Origin: Ostreococcus lucimarinus
Taxonomy: Eukaryota
Strand: one strand, 5' to 3'
NCBI GenBank assembly: GCA_000092065.1
Contig: CP000589.1
DNA length: 64,000 nt
Below are positions 11,519 through 62,818 of the stretch, piece by piece. The position numbers and the translations under genes are program-made. Numbering within the stretch: position 1 is the first letter of the stretch; every line of letters begins with the position of its first letter. Below the pieces are notes generated by a model that had not been told where the DNA came from, ran no database searches, and saw nothing but the letters and a program-made list of their open reading frames with translations.

Positions 11519-13764
11519 CTAGGTTGTCTTTCTAAGCCTGAGTAGCATTCTAATTTCCGCGATATTCTCGTGAGCGTGAGCTTCGAGTTCATACACGAAA
11601 TCATCAAGCGCATCTTCCGGTACGACGAGCAAATTCAGGCGAGTCGACAGAGCTTCGAATCGCTCGATGCTCTCGCGAGCTGTCATCGTCTTTCGTACCC
11701 ATGAAACGTACGCGTTGACGTCGAGCTTGAGTTGCATAGCGCCAACTATGGTATACGTATATCTGCACACGTGTCTGAAGAGCAAGGAATAAAATTGAGC
11801 GCCGATTTCATTCAAGAGCGTCGCCGCGTTTGCCGAATCCAAGCATTCGAGCGTCGTCTTCGCCAAACCGTCGAGAGCATCAACCACGGCTACGCACGCC
11901 TCTGTCTCACGCTCGGCAAACGATGATTCGTCATTGAAGTCTACCGCTCGCTGCGTACCACGGAATTTAGCGTCCACTAGCGTCATGCCGCGCGTCGTCA
12001 TGGCCTCTAAGACCTCCGACATTTCCTCGGCGAGTCGGCTTTGCGCGACGGCAAACATTTGCCGCACTGTGCCAGGAGAGAGCTCCGAGTTCATCGTATC
12101 GATCGCATCGCGCGCACGTGCGAGCCACGCGTTCATGTTCCTGGAAGCGAGCAACACGGGCTCGAACACATCGGCGCGTGCTTCTTCACGCGTCGTCCAG
12201 GCGTTGAGACGCGCGCTCGCCGACTTTGTCGCCGCAATCGATTCGCGAAGATGCCTCTGCGCGAGACGGGTGACGCGGCCCAGGAATGCCTCGGCGAGCC
12301 GTGCTCGCACGCTTTCAATCGAAGTCCCAGGCACGCACGATTCGACTCGAAGAAGCGCTTCTTTGTAACGAGCACATAAATCATCCAGAGAGAACTCAGT
12401 CGCGTCGCGCTGCGGCAAGACGTCGTCATCGCTGGGCACCGAGTCCAAACAAGCGCACTCATCGTCCACGAGCGTCTCACACCCGATGCCAAAAAACACG
12501 TCCGGATCGATCGCCTCAACGTCTGCGTCGTCGTTCGTCATTTCACGTATCGCGCGATTCAAAATCTCAATCTCGCGCAACGACAGCGCCGTGAGTGCCA
12601 GGCGCTGCCGAAGCGACGCTGCGGTGCGCAATTCGGTGGTGAGAAAAGTCTCAACGTACGCCCCGATTCGCTGCTCCGCGATCCGATGCACGAGAGTGTT
12701 AAGAACGACGATAGCGCGCGAATCGAACGCGGCGGTAATCGATTGAAATTCCCTTTTCACCGCGCTTTGAATTTGCGCAAAAAATGTGCGAACGCACTCG
12801 GTGCACAAAGATTCATCCTCGCCGAGAATCACCGATCGCTCGACGACGTTACGAAGGCGTTGAATCTCTTCCATCGCGTTCGCAGAGATGAACATTTCAC
12901 GGCTCGCGACGTACCGCGAGACGACGCTGTGTCCGCCGTTGAACTCAAATAACGCCTCAGCGTCGGCTCGCGCTGCTGCGTACGACTTATTCGCGCACGC
13001 CGCGGCAAATTTGTCCAAAAGTGCGTTTTCAACGTCTTCACAGTACCTTTGCAACGCCGTCGAGGCGTCCTTGAGCGCTAATCGCTCCGCGCCCGCGTCC
13101 TCGTCCGCGATGCGACACGACTGCGCGCGTTCGACGACGGAGAGTGATCTTTTCGCCAAGCGTCCCGCTTCGCCTCGTCGCGCCGCGTCCGCAAACAGTC
13201 CATCGCACGCCTTCGCGACCGCTTCGCCACCCTTAGAAAACGCACACACGCACTCCAAAACATCAGCCAACGTCCCCAACGCGTCGGCGCGTCGACTCGC
13301 GCTCGCAGCTTCCGCGTTCGCCGGCGACTCCAACCGTTCCAACACGCGTTCCGTCATTAACGACGCCCTCGCCATGTCCTCGCACACACTTTCGCGTTCT
13401 ACCGCGTGTTTCTTCACCGTCTCCCGCAGTGTGCGCGCCGCGCCCTCCGCGCTCGCTCGCCGAAGCTCGGCGCGCGCCGCGCTCTCCGCCCTTCGTCGCT
13501 CCAGCGCGTCAACCACCTTCTGCGCGCCCGCGATCGCGTCCTCCACCCCTCCGCGCGCGGCTTCGGCGCAGAGTGACACCGCGACGTCGCGCGCGCGCCT
13601 CGCGCCGTGCTGCGCGCGTCGATGCGAGTCAGTCACCGCGCGTCGTCTCGACAAAGTTCGTTGGTTCGAGTTGGTTCGAAAGACGACGCGAAACGCACCT
13701 CGGCGAAGGCTTCGAGGGACGTGGAGACATCGTCGAGCGCGCGGTCGAGGGCGGCGACATCCAT
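11519..13764 (-). CDS. SEC10: Exocyst complex component Sec10 (EXOC5), two exons: 13699..13764 and 11519..13609
   Basis: The C-terminus ...LSTRLNLLVVPEDALDDFVYELEAHAHENIAEIRMLLRLR aligns with the human EXOC5 C-terminus (CNLLVVAPDNL...). The N-terminal exon MDVAALDRALDDVSTSLEAFAE joins through an 89-nt intron (donor GAG|GTGCGT, branch GGTGACTGAC, acceptor CGCGCAG). Confidence 0.8.
13610..13698 (-). other. Spliceosomal intron (89 nt, phase 0) in Sec10
   Basis: Minus-strand sequence GTGCGTTTCG...GGTGACTGACTCGCATCGACGCGCGCAG. Splicing removes the in-frame stop and joins the MDVAALDR... exon to the main ORF frame. Confidence 0.7.
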
Positions 13765-13950: not shown

Positions 13951-15000
13951 CTAGTCGATGAAGATGCGCCGAAGCGGGTCTCTGGCGAGTTCGCGCATGC
14001 GCGCGTCGTAGTGCAACTGCGCCCAGCGCGCCTTGCCGCCGTCCGATTCCATATCCCGCCTAAACTGTCGCGCCACGTCGTCGCCGATGATGCTCAGGGG
14101 TGAACCGGTGGACATGGCTAAGATTTGCACCTCCGCCGCGCGCTCGAGATAGTACAAATCATCGAACGCCTCGGCGACGGAGGCGCCGCACACGATGACG
14201 CCGTGATGCTTGTGCATCAACACCCGTTTCCCATCCATCACCTTCACCAATCGCTCGCCCTCGGTGTTATCCAACACCAATCCGTTAAAAGTCGGGTCGT
14301 ACGCCACGTCTTCGGCGAATCGCAACGAGTTTTGATGACACATCGCCAACTCGAACGACTCCACGCAACACAGCGCGCTCGCGCGCGGCATGTGCGTGTG
14401 CAGCACGCACGCCACTCCCGCGCGGTGTATCGCGAGATGTATAAAAAACGCCGTCGCGTCCACCTCTCCCGACCCCTCGAGCAACTTCCCGCGCCCATCG
14501 ATCATCACCAGATTACTCGCCGAGACCTCGCTCCACGCCAACCCGTACGGCGCGCACAGAAACGCATCCTCTCGCCCCGGCGCCGCGCACGTCAGGTGAT
14601 TGCACACGCCCTCGTTGAATCCAAGCTTATCGCACAGCTGATAGCACGCCGCGAGCTCGACGCGCGCGCGCCAGACGTCGGCGTCGTACCCTTCGATCGG
14701 CGGCGTGAGGTCGACGTTCCGCCAGGGGTCGCGCCGCGCCGCCGCGTCGCCGTCGCCGACGCGCGGGTACGCGCGCCTCGGCGCGTCGTCCGCCATCTCG
14801 CGCGCGCGCCGGTGCCTCGCGCGCGTCGCGCGTCGCGCCGTGACGTCGTCGCGTCGAGCGCCCGCGACCGACCGATAGCCGCTGACTGTTTGCGCATACG
14901 CGTCATCCGCGACCGACGGCGCGACGCTTCGTATATCGCGCGCCGCGTCGGCGGCGACACATCGCGACGGCGCGCCGCGCGCGCGGAGGCGCGACGCCAT
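13951..15000 (-). CDS. Class II aldolase/adducin-domain protein
   Basis: Class II aldolase fold motifs (CVLHTHMPRASALC; HGVIVCGASVAEAFDDLYYLERAAEVQ) are present. An alternative start at ATG 14794-14796 (MADDAPRR...) would avoid overlapping the divergent gene's start. Confidence 0.75.
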   Translation of the reverse strand: MASRLRARGAPSRCVAADAARDIRSVAPSVADDAYAQTVSGYRSVAGARRDDVTARRATRARHRRAREMADDAPRRAYPRVGDGDAAARRDPWRNVDLTPPIEGYDADVWRARVELAACYQLCDKLGFNEGVCNHLTCAAPGREDAFLCAPYGLAWSEVSASNLVMIDGRGKLLEGSGEVDATAFFIHLAIHRAGVACVLHTHMPRASALCCVESFELAMCHQNSLRFAEDVAYDPTFNGLVLDNTEGERLVKVMDGKRVLMHKHHGVIVCGASVAEAFDDLYYLERAAEVQILAMSTGSPLSIIGDDVARQFRRDMESDGGKARWAQLHYDARMRELARDPLRRIFID

Positions 15001-15206
15001 GCTCGACGTCGACGGCGACGAGTGCGAGGACGCGGTGCGCGCGCGATCGCGCGAGCGCGGTTCGAGCGCGCGCGCGACGCGCGAGACGCGCGATGCGCGC
15101 GAAAGATGGCGACGGCGGCGGCGACGCGGCGAGTCATCTTGCGCGCGCGAGGACGACGCGCGGCGACTGACGGCGCGAATGGCGCGCGCGATAGGGGCAC
15201 GAACGC

Positions 15207-29828: not shown

Positions 29829-29885
29829 CGCGAAAACGTCCGTGCTCGCGAAAACGTCCGTGCTCGCGAAAACGTCGATCGCGCG
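29829..29885. repeat. Tandem 18-bp repeat (CGCGAAAACGTCCGTGCT x2.x) in the divergent intergenic region between the poly(A)-polymerase-like and FtsH genes
   Basis: Direct reading: cgcgaaaacgtccgtgct cgcgaaaacgtccgtgct cgcgaaaacgtcgatcgcgcg. Confidence 0.8.
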
Positions 29886-29890
29886 GACCC

Positions 29891-29961
29891 GCGCGATCGA
29901 TCGATCGTCGATCGCGCGAAATCGAAAAACCTCGCGCGATCGATCGATCGTCGATCGCGCG
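29891..29961. repeat. Two copies of GCGCGATCGATCGATCGTCGATCGCGCG (~43-bp period) built of CGAT/GATC micro-palindromes
   Basis: Direct reading of 29881-29970; lies in the same bidirectional promoter region. Confidence 0.75.
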
Positions 29962-30540
29962 ATCGATCGCGCGACGTCGTCCGACGGCGTGACGTCGACG
30001 TCACGCGCGACGCGCGCGTCGGCACACACGCGCGCGAGTTTCGACGACGCACGATGCACGCCGCGAGCGCGCGAACGATCGCGACGACCGCGCCGCGGGC
30101 GAATAAAAATGTTTCCGAGCGCCGCGCGCGACGGGGGGCGCACGCGCGACGCGCGGCGGCGAGAGAGGTGCGCGAACGATGCGACGCGACGCGCGATGCG
30201 GGCGCGTGGGGTCGGGGGGGGACGCGACGCGCGATGCAGGCGCGCGCGAACGCGCGCGGGGGACGAAGGCGCGCGAATGCGATGGGGGACGTTTGCGCGA
30301 CGCGAACGGCGGCGCGCGCGGCGGTGGATCGCGCGGGCGTCGTCGGGAAGGGGTGGATAAGCGAGATGACGATGGATGACGACGTGGCCCTGGACCGGGG
30401 CGACGACGCGCGGGCGGGCGGCGACGCTCGCGACGATTGGCGAACGCGGGTGACTGACGGTGATGATTGGGTTTGTGAACGCGTAGGATACGACGAACGA
30501 TGTCGCTAAAGTGGCGGCGACGCTCGCGGCGGTGGCGGCG

Positions 30541-34721: not shown

Positions 34722-35230
34722 ATGCGGCGACGACGGCGCTCGCGCGCGCGCGCGCGCGCGGTGGTCATCGCGTGCGTCGTCGCCGCGCTGTGCGCGGGGT
34801 GCGAGGTGCGCGCGCGACGCCGCGGGCGCGCGAAGGCGACGTCGCGAACATCGTTGACGCGACGACGAACGACTGACGACGACGACGCGACGACGGGGGC
34901 TCGCGACGCGCGCAGGGCGCGAGCGGGAATAAAAAACGACGGCAGCGCGCGCACCGCGCGAATTCGCTCGATCGAGAGCTGTCGGTGAAGCGGGAGGCGT
35001 GCGCGGCGAGCGCGCGCGCGGAGCGGCCCGAGTGCGACGACGGGGACGACGCGTCGGTGATGGAGAATTGCGTGTTGAGGTGCGCGAGCGCGAGTTGTTA
35101 CGACGAAGTGTACGGACGCGATGCGCTGGAGGAGGGAGAGGTGGACACGGAGCGTGGACGGGCGTTTCGGTCGTGCGCGAGGGAGGAGTTGAGGCGGTTG
35201 CGCGGGTATCAGACGTTCGGGACGGAGTGA
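34722..35230 (+). CDS. Small Cys-rich protein with N-terminal signal-like segment; two exons 34722..34805 and 34916..35230 (alternative ATG 34650)
   Basis: Exon 1 encodes MRRRRRSRARARAVVIACVVAALCAGCE. The 110-nt intron has donor GAG|GTGCGCGCGCG, branch CGACTGACGACG and acceptor CGCGCAG. Exon 2 (GASGNKKRRQ...REACAASARAERPECDDGDDASVMENCVLRCASASCYDEVYG...SCAREELRRLRGYQTFGTE*) has high GC3. Phase 0 on both sides. Confidence 0.5.
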
Positions 35231-36012: not shown

Positions 36013-36515
36013 CGCGCGCGACGTTCGCGCGCCGTTCGCGCGGCGTCGTGTGCGGCGCGGCGCGCGTCGATCGCGTCGGTGGATAACATTGGCGCCGCGC
36101 GCGAGTGTCAAATCTCTCGACGTCGCGACGACGCGCGGCACACGCGCGCGCGGCGACGCCGAGCGCGCGCGCCAACGGCGAGGATGGTGCGCGCGAACGA
36201 TGCGCGTCGAACGGCGCGCGCGATGCGCGCTCGCGACGCGCGCGCGCGCGCGGCGGGAGATGATTGCGTCGAACGAACGAATGCGCGACGACGCGTTCGA
36301 CGCGCTGACGACGACGCGATGAGGGACTGACGACGGCGCGAACGCGCGAACGCGCGCAGAGTTCGTTCGTGAAAGCGGGGTCGTACGACCCGACGCTCGT
36401 GGACGTGGAGCTGACGGCGGAGGAGGCGAAGACGCGGGCCAACCGCCGGGACGCGTTTCGGGAGCACCTGCGCGCGACGCTCGCGGAGAAGGAGCTCGTG
36501 GGGGCGTTCGCGAAG

Positions 36516-37055
36516 ATGTATAGGATGAATGAGAAACCGAAGGATCCGTTACAGTGGTTGCTGGATTACTTTGAACGCGATCAGAGGGAGCATATACGAC
36601 GCGCGGAGGAGACGGCGGAGACGTATCGCTCAGAGTTGCTGAGAGCGGAACAAGAGCGGGATTCGTTGATCGCGAAGATGGAAGTGATGCGGCAAAAGGT
36701 GAGCAATTTGGAGCGCACGGTGCAGGAGCTTCGCGACGGAGGGCGCAAGCACGTCGTGGGAGTGTACGGTGGGGAGGAGATGCCCACGGGGGCCGACGCA
36801 CCCGCGCCCGCCGAAAAGGAGAACGACAAAAAGGAGAAGAAGGAGAAGAAAGAGAAGAAGGAGAAGAAGGAGAAGAAAGAGAAGAAAGAGAAGAAGGAAA
36901 AGGAGAGCGCGGCGAGGCCTCCATCCGATGATGAGTTTTTCGGCAACTCGAAGGAAACCTTCGGGTCGATGAAAATGAAGACGACTCCCGATATGTTCGA
37001 CGACAGCGACAGCTCAAGCCTACCGAAACAACAATCTCTTCGCGATCAAGTGTAA
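36516..37055 (+). CDS. RIIa/DPY-30-like dimerisation-motif coiled-coil protein with (KEKKE)n repeat
   Basis: PKDPLQWLLDYFERDQREHIRR is a DPY-30/RIIa-like motif, followed by a coiled coil and KEKKEKKEKKEKKEKKEKKEKKEK. The listed ORF opens on GTG at 36369. An ATG-only first exon at 36184 plus a 173-nt intron is possible. Confidence 0.5.
   Translation: MYRMNEKPKDPLQWLLDYFERDQREHIRRAEETAETYRSELLRAEQERDSLIAKMEVMRQKVSNLERTVQELRDGGRKHVVGVYGGEEMPTGADAPAPAEKENDKKEKKEKKEKKEKKEKKEKKEKKEKESAARPPSDDEFFGNSKETFGSMKMKTTPDMFDDSDSSSLPKQQSLRDQV
36829..36900 (+). repeat. Hexanucleotide-based AAGGAG/AAGAAG tandem repeat encoding (KEKKE)n
   Basis: aaggagaagaaggagaagaaagagaagaaggagaagaaggagaagaaagagaagaaagagaagaag. 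Confidence 0.85.
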
Positions 37056-53760: not shown

Positions 53761-54055
53761 GCGTCGCGCGTCGTGCGCGCGCGCGCGTGTGCGCGCGCGC
53801 GCGGGTCGACCGCGAAACCCTCGCGCGCGGGTCGATCGACGCGCGATCGATCGCGCGTCGATCGCGATCGACCCTCGCGCGAGTTTCGATCGCCGAAATT
53901 CGAACCTCGCCCGCGCGGGTCGAAAAAGCGCGGGAGAGGGGAACCGTCGCTGAGTCAGTGCCTTTTCACGAAGTCGCATGCGATTGCGCGCATCGCGACG
54001 CGCGACGCGACACACGGCGACGCGCGCGCTCGTAAACGACGCGCACCGACGCGAA

Positions 54056-57337: not shown

Positions 57338-60300
57338 ATGCGCGCCGTCGGCGCGACGAGCGAGCGCGGCGTCGAGCGCGCGACGACCGCGACGCGCGCG
57401 ACGACGCGCGCGACGACGCGCGCGGGCATGCGTCGAGCGCGGGCGCTCGCGCGCGCGCTCGAACGGATTCGGTTGACGACGAGACGACGAGACGTGTGGA
57501 CGCGCGGCGTCGCGGACGGCGATGGCGCGGGCGCGCGGGACGGCGCGAGCGTCGCGACGAGCGATTCGCTCGACGCGCGCGCGGTCGTGGTGCGTGCGAG
57601 CGCGCGAGGGCGTCGAGGGCGAGGGATCTCTGGTGAACGCGCGCGCGGTTTGATTTTTAAAAGATTGGACGGAGGAAAGACGGGCGACGGGCGAGCGATG
57701 GCGGACTGACGACGACGACGCGCGCGCGAATGATGACGCAGGATCGATTGCGCGCGGGGCTGGCGTACGAGATGAGCAATGGGTGCGCGAACGCGAAGGG
57801 GAAGGCGTTCGACGATTTTCAGAGCTTTCTCACGGCGTCGCTTCGGGAGTTGGAGCGATCGCACGCGTCGCCGATGCTCGCGCACATGGTGCGGGATTCG
57901 ACGGTGTATGGGAATTTGGACGTCGATCGACGACAGCGGTTGCTGCAGAATATGTCGACGGCGCTGCCTGGGGTGATTCAGCGCGGCGAAACGGCGCCGC
58001 CGGCGAGGTCGCCGCAGACGCCGCGAGCGTGGTCGCCGCCGAGCGCTGCGCCGGTGGTCGAGCGCGCGGGGGCGACGTCGGTAGTTTCATCGAACATGGG
58101 TGGTGTCGCGAGCGGGTCGAAGCGGACTCCGGCGGTGGCGGCTGCGAAGACGAAGGAGGACGCGCCGAAGACGAAGGCGCCGACGGTGTCGCGAGATTCG
58201 TCCGAGTTCCCCACCATTATTGTTTTCGATTTAGAGACCACCGGGTTGAGCAAGGAGAAGAGTCGAATCATCGAGCTCGCGGCGCAGTCGCTCTCGGATC
58301 CGTCCGCGGCGTTCAGCACGCTCGTGAATCCCGGTCGGTTTACGATTCCAGCCGCCATCACCTCGCTCACGGGCATCACCAACAGCATGGTGAGCGCTTC
58401 GAACGTGCCGTCGTTCGCGATGGCGGCCGAGCAGTTGGAAGCATTTATTGAAAGCGCCCGCCAGTCGCGCCCGGGGGCGCCGATCTTGCTTGTCGCGCAC
58501 AACGCGCGTCAGTTTGACGCGGCTTTTATGCAGCATGAATACCGTCGTCTTGGGCGTGAGTTGCCGTCGAGTTGGAGATTCTGTGATACCTTGCCGCTCG
58601 CGCGCGCGCTGCTGCGTCCGGAAGGATTGGCAAAGTTCAACATGGATGTCCTACGGGAATACTACGGCGTGTCGATCGATGGTGAAGACACACAAATGCA
58701 CCGCGCAGGGACGGACGCTCGAGTGTTGGCTGAAATCCTCAACAAACTACTCGAGCATCCCAATGCGAAGGACGACGAGCTTGGGTGCTTGGAGAAGTAC
58801 TCATTTTCGCTCGGCGATCCGGGCGCGGGGAGTTTGAAGCGAGCGACCGCGGATGCCAAGTCTGAGAGCGAACGCTCGTCCTACGCGGGCGGCGCGCCGG
58901 GCTGGGGCGGCGGCGGTACAGTGAACTTGAGCGACGGCGAAGAAGCCGACGTCGGTGGTGGATGGGCCGCGGTCGATGAATTCGCAAACGAAGAAAATAT
59001 GGAATTTGAGAGTGACTCGAGCTCGATGTCGTCAAACGATGTGCCTCTTCGAGGTATGCAGAAGCCGTTTTGGGCCGCCGAGGATCCCATCAACGGTATT
59101 CTCCCCGAAACTGTCGACTTTCAGAAACTCGCCGAAATCGCCGCTAAGACGGACACCTCCGAGCTTCGTCTCGACCTAGAGCGATGGAAAGAAACATCGA
59201 TCGAAGCGCTCAAGGATAAAGTCCCGAAGTCGACTATGAAGGCGCTGAAAGCCGAAGGCATCAACACCATCGAAGCCGTATTGCGCAACTGCCCGCGCAA
59301 GTATCAAGAGTACAGCGTTTGGAACAAGTCTCTCGCACAAGGCACACAAGTGACCCTCACTGGGACAGTTCGTTCGATGCAAGTGCGCGATTACATGCGT
59401 GGGCGTGCGATCCCGAACACGGTGTTGGTCGAAGTCGACGTACGCGAGGACGAACTCACGCCGACAGAGGACGATCCGTGGGGCGCAAATAAGCCTCGGT
59501 GCAAAGTTAAAGTGTGGGACTACATTTCGAAGGATGCTCGCGAAGAAATGCCGATCGGTGCTCGGGTGAGTGTCCGCGGCACTTTGGGTACGGGCGATAG
59601 GAACTGCCAGTTCAGCGTGGACGGCGGTCGTGTCGTTCCGATTGCCGCAGATGCGCCGGTATTTGCGTCCGACTCGTCGGAAATTGTCGCCACGTACGCC
59701 AAGCGTGGAGCGATGAGCAATGTTGAGTGGCATCGCGCGGTGAACGCATCGATGGACATTTTCCTAGCGAAGCTTCCCGCCGATCCCATGGAGGTATCGA
59801 TGGGCCGCGATAATCCATTGCTCGCCGAACTCGGATTGCTTTCGCATTCGGAGGCGGTGAAGAATATTCACAGGCCACGAAACGTCGAGGCTGTGGCGCA
59901 AGCGCGAGAGCGATTGGCGTTTGAAGAATTGGTTTTATTACAAGTGGCGCTTCTACAAGAACGCAGTCGTTTACAGGCGCTTCCCGTGTCCGAGTCGACC
60001 GAAGGCGTGTGCATTGTCGGCACTGCTCTCACGGACGAGTTGCGCAGCGAGTTACCGTTTGCGCTTACGCGATCTCAAGAGTCTTCACTCGAAGAAATTT
60101 TGAGCGATATGGCCGGGCCGGCACCGATGTTGCGCCTACTCCAAGGTGATGTGGGGTGCGGTAAGACTGTCGTTGCCGCCATGGCGCTCCTCGCGGCGGT
60201 CGGTGCAGGACATCAAGGCGCGTTCATGGCGCCGACTGAAGTACTCGCCACGCAGCACCACCGCGTGCTCACGGATTTGCTTTCACAAATGCGAGATCCA

Positions 60301-61419
60301 CCGAAAGTGGCGTTACTCACTGGTTCAACGAAAACTGCTGAACGTGCGCAAATTCTCGAGGATTTGAATGACGGAAAGATTGGAATTATTGTTGGCACGC
60401 ACGCTTTGATTCACGAAAAAGTTGTATTCAGCTCACTCGGCATCGCCGTCGTCGATGAACAGCATCGTTTTGGCGTGGAGCAACGCGCTGGATTATTGGC
60501 AAAAGGTAAGCTCCCACCGCACATGCTTACCATGAGCGCAACGCCGATTCCGCGCACACTCGCGATGACAAAGTTTGGCGAGATGGCTTTGAGCGTCATC
60601 GACGAGAAACCCGCTGGCCGTTTGCCAATCATCACAACGGTGTGCGGTGTCGACGAGCACTCGCAAGCCTACGATTCGATGTGCGAAGAAGTGAGCCGCG
60701 GCGGGCAGGCTTACGTCATCTTGCGTCTCGTGAACGAATCCGGATCGTCTCGCATGTCTGAAGTGAAGGGCGCGGAGGAGGAATACGCTCGTCTCGTGAG
60801 CAAGTATCCAAATGTACGATTCGGACTCTTGCACGGGCAGTTGGGCGCGGACGAAAAAGCCGCGGCGCTAGAAAAGTTTAGTTCTGGAGAAACTCAAGCC
60901 CTGGTCGCTACGTCAGTCGTTGAAGTTGGTGTGGACGTGCCGAATGCGAGCGTCATCATCATCGAAGACGCAGACGGTTTCGGTCTCGCCGCGCTTCACC
61001 AGCTTCGAGGTCGTGTCGGACGCGGCGCACGTCAGTCGAAGTGCTTCTTGTTACACTCTCCTGGCGCAGGGGAGAACGCGGAGTTGAAGGGAGATCGCGC
61101 GCGCGACCGTCTTCGTGTGCTCGAGCAATCAAACAACGGCTTCCGAATTGCCGAGAGCGATTTACAGCTCCGCGGCGCTGGCGAGCTCTTCGGCACGAAA
61201 CAAAGCGGCCAGCAGGTGAACCTGTTCCACGCATCGATGTCAACAGATCTCTATTTACTCGAAGCCGCTCGCAAGGCGGCGGCAGAGATGATTTCACGCG
61301 CCTCCTTGCAACAGGAACCACTCCCGGCGCCGGTGACGGTCGCTTTAGAAACGCGGCCCGCGTTGATCCTCGACAACGCCATCATCTCTGGCGGTGCTCA
61401 AGCAGCGGCGACGAATTGA
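57338..61419 (+). CDS. recG: DnaQ-like DEDDh 3'-5' exonuclease fused to RecG helicase; two exons 57338..57589 and 57742..61419
   Basis: Exo I IIVFDLETTGL, Exo II LLVAHNARQFDAAFM and Exo III HRAGTDARVLAEIL are present. RecG wedge/OB region follows, then helicase motifs GDVGCGKTVVAAMA, VVDEQHRFGVEQR, SATPIPRTL and HQLRGRVGRG. The upstream exon encodes an Ala/Arg/Thr-rich presequence (MRAVGATSERGVERATTATRATTRATTRAGMRRARALARAL...). The 152-nt intron has GTGCGT donor, GGACTGAC branch and CAG acceptor. Confidence 0.8.
57590..57741 (+). other. Spliceosomal intron (152 nt, phase 0) in the exo-RecG gene
   Basis: GTGCGTGCGAGCG...GGCGGACTGACGACGACGACGCGCGCGCGAATGATGACGCAG. Exon 1 ends DARAVV| and exon 2 begins |DRLRAGLAYEMSNG in the helicase frame. 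Confidence 0.6.
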
Positions 61420-61578: not shown

Positions 61579-62818
61579 ATGTCCACCATGTCCGCTTCCC
61601 TCCGCACCACGTCAACCGTCAACTTGCGCGCCTGCACGTACGTTTTCGGTCGCGTTAGCGCGTCGCGTCGCGCGTCACGACGTCGCGCACGTCGAGTAAT
61701 CCGCCTTATCCGCCGAGGGCCGACAAACAGGGCGCTTACGACAGTGTCGCGGTGTCTTCTCGGTGCAGTGACGGCGCGATCACGAAGCGATAAAGTATAC
61801 TGACGATGAACCGCGTTTTCGTGTGATACGCAGGACCCGACGCGCTAGCGTTCGAGCGTCCCGCTCGGTCACCGTGCGCGCCGCCGCCGACTACTCGCCG
61901 AAGAAGGCCTTCTTCTTCCCGGGACAAGGCGCGCAAACGGTCGGCATGGCGAAGGAGCTGTGCGAAGAGTGCCCCGCGGCGAAGGCGATGTTTGACACCG
62001 CGTCCGGCGTGCTCGGGTACGACTTGCTCGATGTGTGCGTCAACGGCCCGGCGGAGCGCTTGAACTCGACGGCGGTTTCCCAGCCGGCGATTTACGTGTC
62101 TTCTTTGGCGGCGCTCGAAAAGATGAAGATGTCGGACGAAGGTAAGGCGATGATCGACTCCATCGACGTCGCCGCGGGCTTGTCTCTCGGCGAGTACACG
62201 GCTTTGACCTTTGCCGAGGCGTTGTCTTTCGAAGACGGCTTGAAGCTCGTGAAGATTCGCGGTGAGTCCATGCAAGAGGCTGCCGATGCCACGCCCTCCG
62301 GTATGGCGTCCGTCATCGGCCTCTCCGCGGATAAGGCCGAAGAACTCGCCGCACGCGCCGCCGCCGAGTCCGGGGCGCCGTGCTCGGTTGCCAACTACTT
62401 GTGCAACGGTAACTACGCCGTGTCCGGCGCCATCCCGGCTATCGACAAGGTTGAAGAAATCGCCAAGCCGGAATTCAAGGCGCGTATGGTCGTGCGTCTC
62501 GCCGTCGCCGGTGCGTTCCACACCGACTTCATGGCCCCGGCCGCGGACAAGCTCAAGGCTGCGCTCGAAGCGACACCGATTAAGGAGCCGCGCATCCCGG
62601 TCATTTCCAACGTCGACGTCAACCCGCACACGGACGCCGCGAGCATTCGCGCCACGTTGGCGAAGCAGCTCACCAACCCGGTGCAATGGGAAACCACGAT
62701 GACCACGCTCCTCGGTAAGGGCTTGGAGTCTGCGACGGAAGTTGGTCCGGGCAAGGTGATCAGCGGTATCATGAAGCGCGTGGATAAGGCGTTTGCGTGC
62801 GACAACTTCACCGTTTAA
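61579..62818 (+). CDS. fabD: Malonyl-CoA:ACP transacylase (FabD), plastid type II FAS; two exons 61579..61637 and 61834..62818
   Basis: FabD motifs FFFPGQGAQ and GLSLGEYTAL are present, with an ACP-binding region. Exon 1 encodes MSTMSASLRTTSTVNLRAC (transit-peptide start). Splicing is phase 2 with donor GTACGT, branch TATACTGAC and acceptor ACGCAG. The in-frame result is ...LRACT|TRRASVRASRSV.... TGTAA at 62830. Confidence 0.85.
61638..61833 (+). other. Spliceosomal intron (196 nt, phase 2) in FabD
   Basis: Donor GTACGT at 61638, branch TACTGAC at 61797-61803, acceptor CAG at 61831-61833. Exon 1 carries 19 codons plus 2 nt, matching the phase needed by the downstream FabD frame, which has no ATG of its own. 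Confidence 0.8.

Follow-up and report, generated by a model that had tools for sequence, protein, structure and literature searches.

In confirmed introns of Ostreococcus lucimarinus outside chromosome 2, the 5' splice sites are very strong and follow an atypical consensus, GTGCGTG; ACTGAC occurs in 87.2% of these introns and its extended form GACTGACG in 66.5% (Irimia & Roy 2008, PMC2483917). The strictness of these signals was attributed to the intron-poor state of the genome (PMC2483917). For canonical introns of Micromonas, the reported signals are AG/GTGCGT (slashes denote junctions throughout) and NCTGAC; canonical introns cluster at gene 5' ends and introner elements favor gene centers (Verhelst et al. 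2013, PMC3879977). Besides canonical introns, the systems used here for comparison were the introner elements of Micromonas, namely IE-A to IE-D (Verhelst 2013) and ABC-, D- and E2-IE (Simmons 2015), and the introners of Gozashti 2022 (PMC9860276). The latter are defined by BLAST similarity (E<=1e-5) which starts no more than 15 nt from both boundaries, in both introns, and by families of at least four.

The DNA analyzed here, hereafter the window, is a stretch of 64 kb with approximately 46 genes. An earlier sequence-only reading of the window had pointed out that several candidate introns share an extended motif at the 5' end and a module at the 3' end, and had suggested either an introner-like family, as in Micromonas-type genomes, or an extended donor consensus. 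By scanning for GTGCG...CTGAC...YAG and for ACTGAC, followed by reading-frame checks, we located seven short introns (89-319 nt), which are given below together with the first exon and the intron 5' end of the FtsH gene.

13610..13698, minus strand: intron 1 of the Sec10-like exocyst gene, 89 nt; donor GTGCGTT, branch point GACTGACT, acceptor CGCGCAG; spliced product on record.
15035..15194, plus strand: intron 1 of the Methyltransf_16 (lysine methyltransferase) gene, 160 nt; donor GTGCGCG, branch point GACTGACG at 15165-15172, acceptor TAG.
30054..30167, plus strand: FtsH exon 1, 38 codons with a transit-peptide N-terminus, ending GAGAG/GT in phase 0; read from the sequence.
30168..30486, plus strand: FtsH intron 1, 319 nt; donor GTGCGCG, branch point GACTGACG at 30452-30459, acceptor TAG (30484-30486).
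30168..30190, plus strand: 5' end of the FtsH intron, GTGCGCGAACGATGCGACGCGAC; the donor consensus GTGCGCG, then CG-rich low-complexity sequence.
34806..34915, plus strand: intron 1 of the Cys-rich DUF4787 gene, 110 nt; donor GTGCGCG, branch point GACTGACG at 34871-34878, acceptor CGCGCAG.
36187..36359, plus strand: intron of the RIIa-labelled gene, 173 nt; donor GTGCGCG, branch point GACTGACG at 36325-36332, acceptor CGCGCAG.
57590..57741, plus strand: intron 1 of the RecG-like helicase gene, 152 nt; donor GTGCGTG, branch point GACTGACG at 57704-57711, acceptor CAG.
61638..61833, plus strand: intron 1 of the malonyl-CoA:ACP transacylase (Acyl_transf_1) gene, 196 nt, phase 2; donor GTACGT, branch point TACTGACG, acceptor CAG.

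Each of the seven is the first intron of its gene and lies at the very 5' end, 3-252 nt downstream of the start codon, and six are in phase 0. Exact protein matches identify the window as O. lucimarinus CCE9901, not as a Micromonas-type genome: the Sec23 ORF (565-2880) is identical to XP_001419581.1, and the Sec10-like protein obtained by removing 13698-13610 is identical to XP_001419797.1, which confirms the intron 13610-13698 as annotated. FtsH exon 1 is a 114-nt ORF from the ATG at 30054 that joins, in phase 0, the FtsH frame opening at 30487. This junction is supported by two orthologous, transcript-derived FtsH proteins from Ostreococcus (P0049 and P0065), the N-termini of which match it, and it is precisely where the ORFs called on genomic DNA (P0046-P0048) and P0051 (729 aa) begin to differ. 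The other five introns are presumably spliced as well, judging from reading-frame continuity and conservation. The spliced products of the FtsH, RIIa-labelled, methyltransferase and DUF4787 genes had no exact match in a collection of 15 billion proteins, and the deposited O. lucimarinus gene models seem to lack at least these four short 5' exons (14999-15034, 30054-30167, 34722-34805 and 36184-36186) together with their introns.

A number of further features were observed in and around these genes. In the RIIa-labelled gene, exon 1 consists of the ATG alone (36184-36186), immediately followed by the intron. The label itself, taken over from the sequence-only reading, found no confirmation in Pfam, which returned no RIIa domain in this protein and only a sub-threshold low-complexity match to Med19. 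At 36820-36902, nine tandem copies of a 9-nt coding repeat (AGAAGGAGA) give the protein a (KEKKEKKEK)n tract. The RecG-like helicase gene (57338-61419) encodes 1309 aa with an N-terminal RNase_T exonuclease domain and has a first exon of 84 codons; prokaryote-style gene calls on metagenome contigs cut it into proteins of 123 and 1229 aa. At the methyltransferase gene, the ATG (plus strand) and the start of the longest minus-strand ORF (13951-15000) coincide in the palindrome CATG at 14998-15001, which is probably a coincidence, since the minus-strand coding signal starts further downstream. In the divergent promoter region that precedes FtsH (29829-29876 and 29893-29969) there are a perfect 2.7-copy tandem repeat of 18 nt (CGCGAAAACGTCCGTGCT) and a duplicated CGCGCGATCGATCGATCGTCGATCGCGCGA block, both of which may be promoter elements. 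Lastly, a possible 5'-UTR intron is found upstream of the APS kinase gene (53907-54046, minus strand; GTGCGCGTCGTTTACG...CACTGACTC...GCGAG); this candidate starts 10 nt from the start codon of a divergently transcribed porin gene.

Compared with the published code of the species, the window introns carry ACTGAC in 7/7 and GACTGACG in 5/7 cases, the donor is GTGCG[CT] in six and GTACGT in one, and the distance from the branch-point A to the acceptor is 19-39 nt. ACTGAC is largely restricted to introns, with a density of 5.8/kb compared to 0.18/kb in intergenic and 0.07/kb in coding DNA, i.e. it is approximately 30-80 times rarer outside introns. The window introns thus resemble the canonical O. 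lucimarinus introns (PMC2483917) in all three signals (GTGCG(T/C)G, (G)ACTGAC(G) and YAG), in being short and in their intron-poor context; in the window C is as common as T at position +6 and several of the introns seem absent from the deposited gene models, and otherwise nothing material sets them apart. Because their modules match the published signals, the 3' CTGACGACG...CGCGCAG module of the sequence-only reading is the branch point plus the acceptor, and GTGCGCG is the donor. In the form GACTGACGACG...CGCGCAG, the module is exact in two introns and the others carry variants of it. A GTGCGTG donor combined with a GACTGACG branch point is already published for O. lucimarinus, and to that extent the result is already known. 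An Rfam scan of the window gave zero matches and no snRNA gene, and splice signals are not treated in the O. tauri telomere-to-telomere preprint.

The positions of these introns are conserved between species. A search with the FtsH protein led to three orthologous loci, L007 from O. tauri and L006 and L008 from two other Ostreococcus clades (FtsH 95% and 93% identical, respectively), across which gene order is kept and the FtsH intron occupies the same position. The sequence after the FtsH donor diverges, reading GTGCGCGAACGATGCG in O. lucimarinus, GTGCGCGCGATGACGCG in L006, GTGCGATGCGAGCGACG in L008 and GTGCGTCCACGGTCGCG in O. tauri. Likewise, the intron of the RIIa-labelled gene directly follows the ATG in O. 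lucimarinus, in L006 (at approximately 16140) and in O. tauri (L007, 15513), and after GTGCGCGCG it reads AACGATGCG, ACGCGACGG and ACGACGACG, respectively. The gene span and product length of the deposited O. tauri model suggest that a second GTGCG donor, 67 nt downstream, is used instead in that species. The position of the DUF4787 intron is kept in L006 and L008. O. lucimarinus is also abundant in marine metagenomes, with same-species contigs that are 99.4-99.8% identical to the window (99.7-99.8% for L001-L004) or, in the case of L005, 100% identical. These contigs keep the five introns that they span, including those at 34806 and 36187 in L122 and those at 57590 and 61638 in L001-L004; the FtsH intron at 30168 is spanned by none of them. 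The window introns are, in other words, old and vertically inherited, and their interiors drift freely.

The strings on which the suggestion of an extended motif was based are all present, i.e. GTGCGCGAACGATGCGACGCGAC at 30168-30190, GTGCGCGCGAACGATGCGCGTCG at 36187, GTGCGCGCGCGATCG at 15035 and GTGCGCGCGCGACG at 34806, and the match of 16/18 nt between the FtsH (30168) and RIIa-labelled (36187) introns is real. The internal ACGCGCGATGCG, said to occur in three introns, is exact in those of the FtsH and methyltransferase genes and matches only 11/12 in that of the RIIa-labelled gene. For a larger sample, metagenomes were scanned with the 3' module GACTGACGACG(N10-40)CGCGCAG, giving at least 120 stretches. 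Among the matches listed, 17 had a tetranucleotide correlation above 0.92 to the window, and approximately 100 represented GC-rich soil or other DNA. One of the 17 overlaps the window, leaving, among the matches listed, 16 non-redundant new loci of approximately 150 kb, which are Ostreococcus-like by composition and apparently of mixed species; a cluster look-up tied one of them, L151, to O. lucimarinus. From these loci and the window flanks, another 31 introns were curated by donor, branch point and reading frame, giving a total of 38.

In these 38 introns the donor logo reads G/GTRCGYG, with 0.76 bits at +6 (Y), 0.37 at +7 (G) and 0.07-0.29 from +8 to +20. The extended donor consensus hence holds up to position +7, while the further (CG)AACGATGCG extension is part of no consensus. 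Neither AACGATGCG nor ACGCGCGATGCG occurs in the 31 independent introns, where 0.2-0.5 occurrences are expected. A search for further copies of the motif, GTGCGCG(N0-2)AACGATGCG, returned only the two reported sites in approximately 232 kb of distinct Ostreococcus sequence (the whole genome is 13.2 Mb), and scanning orthologous and overlapping loci added only the L122 copy of the RIIa site. The same motif is found 61 times in unrelated viral (phage-like) contigs, i.e. as simple background. There is no information beyond +7, and conservation is confined to the donor, branch point and acceptor.

The similarity that remains between individual introns does not clearly exceed chance. Within the window, the longest k-mer that is shared after GTGCG at nearly equal offset measures 11 nt (CGAACGATGCG; seven introns), and a shared 11-mer or longer arises by chance in 2%, 5% and 10% of cases under Markov models of order 1, 2 and 3, respectively, and in 12% of trials with real intergenic chunks placed after GTGCG. 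In the first 60 nt of all 38 introns, the maximum sharing of 10-, 12- and 14-mers is not above the Markov nulls (P=0.14-0.46). An all-against-all alignment of the seven window introns (21 pairs), which the sequence-only reading had proposed as a check, gave z=0.08 against dinucleotide shuffles for the FtsH/RIIa pair over its full length, and the few pairs that reach z=2.2-4.4 in the same local alignments presumably do so because the branch-point and acceptor block is common to them. As for the RIIa-labelled intron, Tandem Repeats Finder showed its first 36 nt to be a 2.7-copy tandem repeat of TGCGCGCGAACGA, with 'AACGA/TGCG' as the repeat junction that yields 'AACGATGCG'. The shared motif is accordingly a real observation, yet one that does not clearly go beyond the known donor consensus and a CG-rich composition.

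Consequently, the window introns are in all likelihood independent, ancient and canonical U2-type spliceosomal introns of O. lucimarinus. Three other explanations were weighed against this one, the best surviving of which is a recurrent element downstream of the donor, of the type GCGATGCGA(C/T)GCGAC or (GATGC)n, that would be either the decayed remnant of an introner from before the radiation of Ostreococcus or an enhancer of splicing or expression. It would concern the introns of the FtsH and RIIa-labelled genes and those in L148, L172 and L005, i.e. a minority of the 5' introns in Ostreococcus. Such an element could account for the occurrence of GATGCGACGCGA near the 5' end of 4/38 introns in unrelated genes (FtsH, L148+2868, L172-1102 and L005+6184), for GCGATGCG being found 11 times in sense and once in antisense in the independent introns (approximately three expected), and for the GATG[CA] shortly after the donor in all FtsH orthologues. 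CGATGCG, too, is enriched on the sense strand, with five occurrences in 1.2 kb of window introns compared to 0.36/kb in intergenic DNA, and with 13 in the independent introns where approximately 6-7 are expected (P=0.007-0.03). However, the excess of both CGATGCG and GCGATGCG mostly traces to (GATGC)n arrays carried by three introns, namely L172-1102, L148+2868 and L005+6184, and their strand asymmetry is paralleled by a general purine skew, as seen in CGACGCG with 61 sense and 20 antisense occurrences. We read the excess as slippage-prone low-complexity sequence. Moreover, the unbiased maximum of k-mer sharing mentioned above is not significant, the motif is lost in the RIIa orthologues, and it was chosen post hoc. 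Taken together, we consider a recurrent element improbable.

The (GATGC)n pentanucleotide arrays themselves are situated immediately downstream of the donor or close to it in L172 (minus strand, donor at 862), L148 (+2805) and L005 (+5806), and these three introns have GCGATGCGACGCGA in common with the FtsH intron.

An introner-like family, in which the window introns would have been copied from an element that proliferates and keeps its ends conserved, like those of Micromonas, is very improbable. What speaks for it are the 5' and 3' modules in common, the internal CGCGATGCG in three introns, and the introners of Micromonas, whose members are relatives in the same order. The introners of Micromonas are, like the window introns, GC-rich spliceosomal introns of Mamiellophyceae with GYRNG-type donors and a GACUGAC branch point, and IE-C of Micromonas RCC299 even carries GACTGACG. 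On the other hand, introners are approximately 80-100% identical along the whole element and exist in tens to thousands of copies, while the window introns share the splice signals only. Introners are furthermore lineage-specific, with presence/absence polymorphism and a location in gene centers, whereas the window introns are conserved in position across Ostreococcus species and are, with 7/7 first introns, all 5'-terminal, the opposite of the gene-center bias (Verhelst 2013).

Direct searches pointed the same way. All-against-all blastn of the 38 introns with flanks gave no pair with both 5'-5' and 3'-3' boundary matches, and thus no family, let alone one of four or more, whether low-complexity filtering was switched on or off. 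Megablast of the same 38 introns returned no matches. With the filter off, many matches appeared, but they were out of register, spread over several registers and present in either orientation, which is typical of low-complexity sequence and not of homology. Self-BLAST of the 232 kb of Ostreococcus sequence detected no repeat family and no high-identity repeats, only CG-rich similarity of 65-77% identity over at least 100 nt, a few matches over 29-59 nt (79-97% identical), and a single Sec23/24 paralogue. The extended motif is, as stated, absent from the 31 independent introns. Target-site duplications and terminal inverted repeats are present in DNA-transposon introners only. At the window junctions, the only repeats are the generic G/GT...AG/G, and the complementarity of the ends comes from self-complementary (CG)n runs, which confound the test for terminal inverted repeats. 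[quoted passage not shown] Finally, O. tauri, O. mediterraneus and Bathycoccus were scored without introners in the supplement of Gozashti et al., where O. lucimarinus is among the genomes surveyed and not among the introner-bearing ones. With no end-to-end similarity or homology between the 38 introns, no repeat family and no additional motif copies in the 232 kb, and old intron positions, the introner family put forward by the sequence-only reading is not supported.

An exchange of 5' ends between the FtsH and RIIa-labelled introns by local duplication or gene conversion, as their common strand, their distance of 6 kb and their 16/18 identity at homologous positions might suggest, is extremely unlikely, given that the similarity ends after approximately 18 nt and vanishes over the whole introns, that the FtsH 5' end is matched best by the intron L148+2868, which belongs to an unrelated gene on another contig (92% over 26 nt), and that the string in the RIIa-labelled intron is generated by its internal tandem repeat.

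Returning to independent canonical introns, their resemblance can be envisaged as the product of two components. Outside the intron-rich part of chromosome 2, the intron-poor genome employs unusually strict signals, i.e. G/GTGCG(T/C)G, (G)ACTGAC(G) and YAG, of which GUGCGYG would be read by U1/U6 and GACUGACG by U2, as expected from standard spliceosome biology. Owing to such strict signals, any two introns have approximately 7 nt in common at the 5' end and approximately 8-11 nt close to the 3' end. The remainder of each intron is CG-rich, purine-skewed low-complexity sequence with short repeats of CGACG, CGCGA and GATGC, as in the promoter-proximal non-coding DNA of this genome, and such sequence easily produces matches of 9-15 nt between unrelated introns. 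Chance in combination with local tandem slippage may then account for the 16/18 match of the FtsH and RIIa-labelled introns.

The significance of these findings is small and mostly a matter of housekeeping. In Ostreococcus, the shared GTGCGCG...GACTGACG...CAG frame is the normal splice code and not evidence of introners, and short matches (10-15 nt) between CG-rich introns are to be expected by chance. A by-product is the set of 5' exons that are seemingly missing from the deposited gene models of O. lucimarinus.
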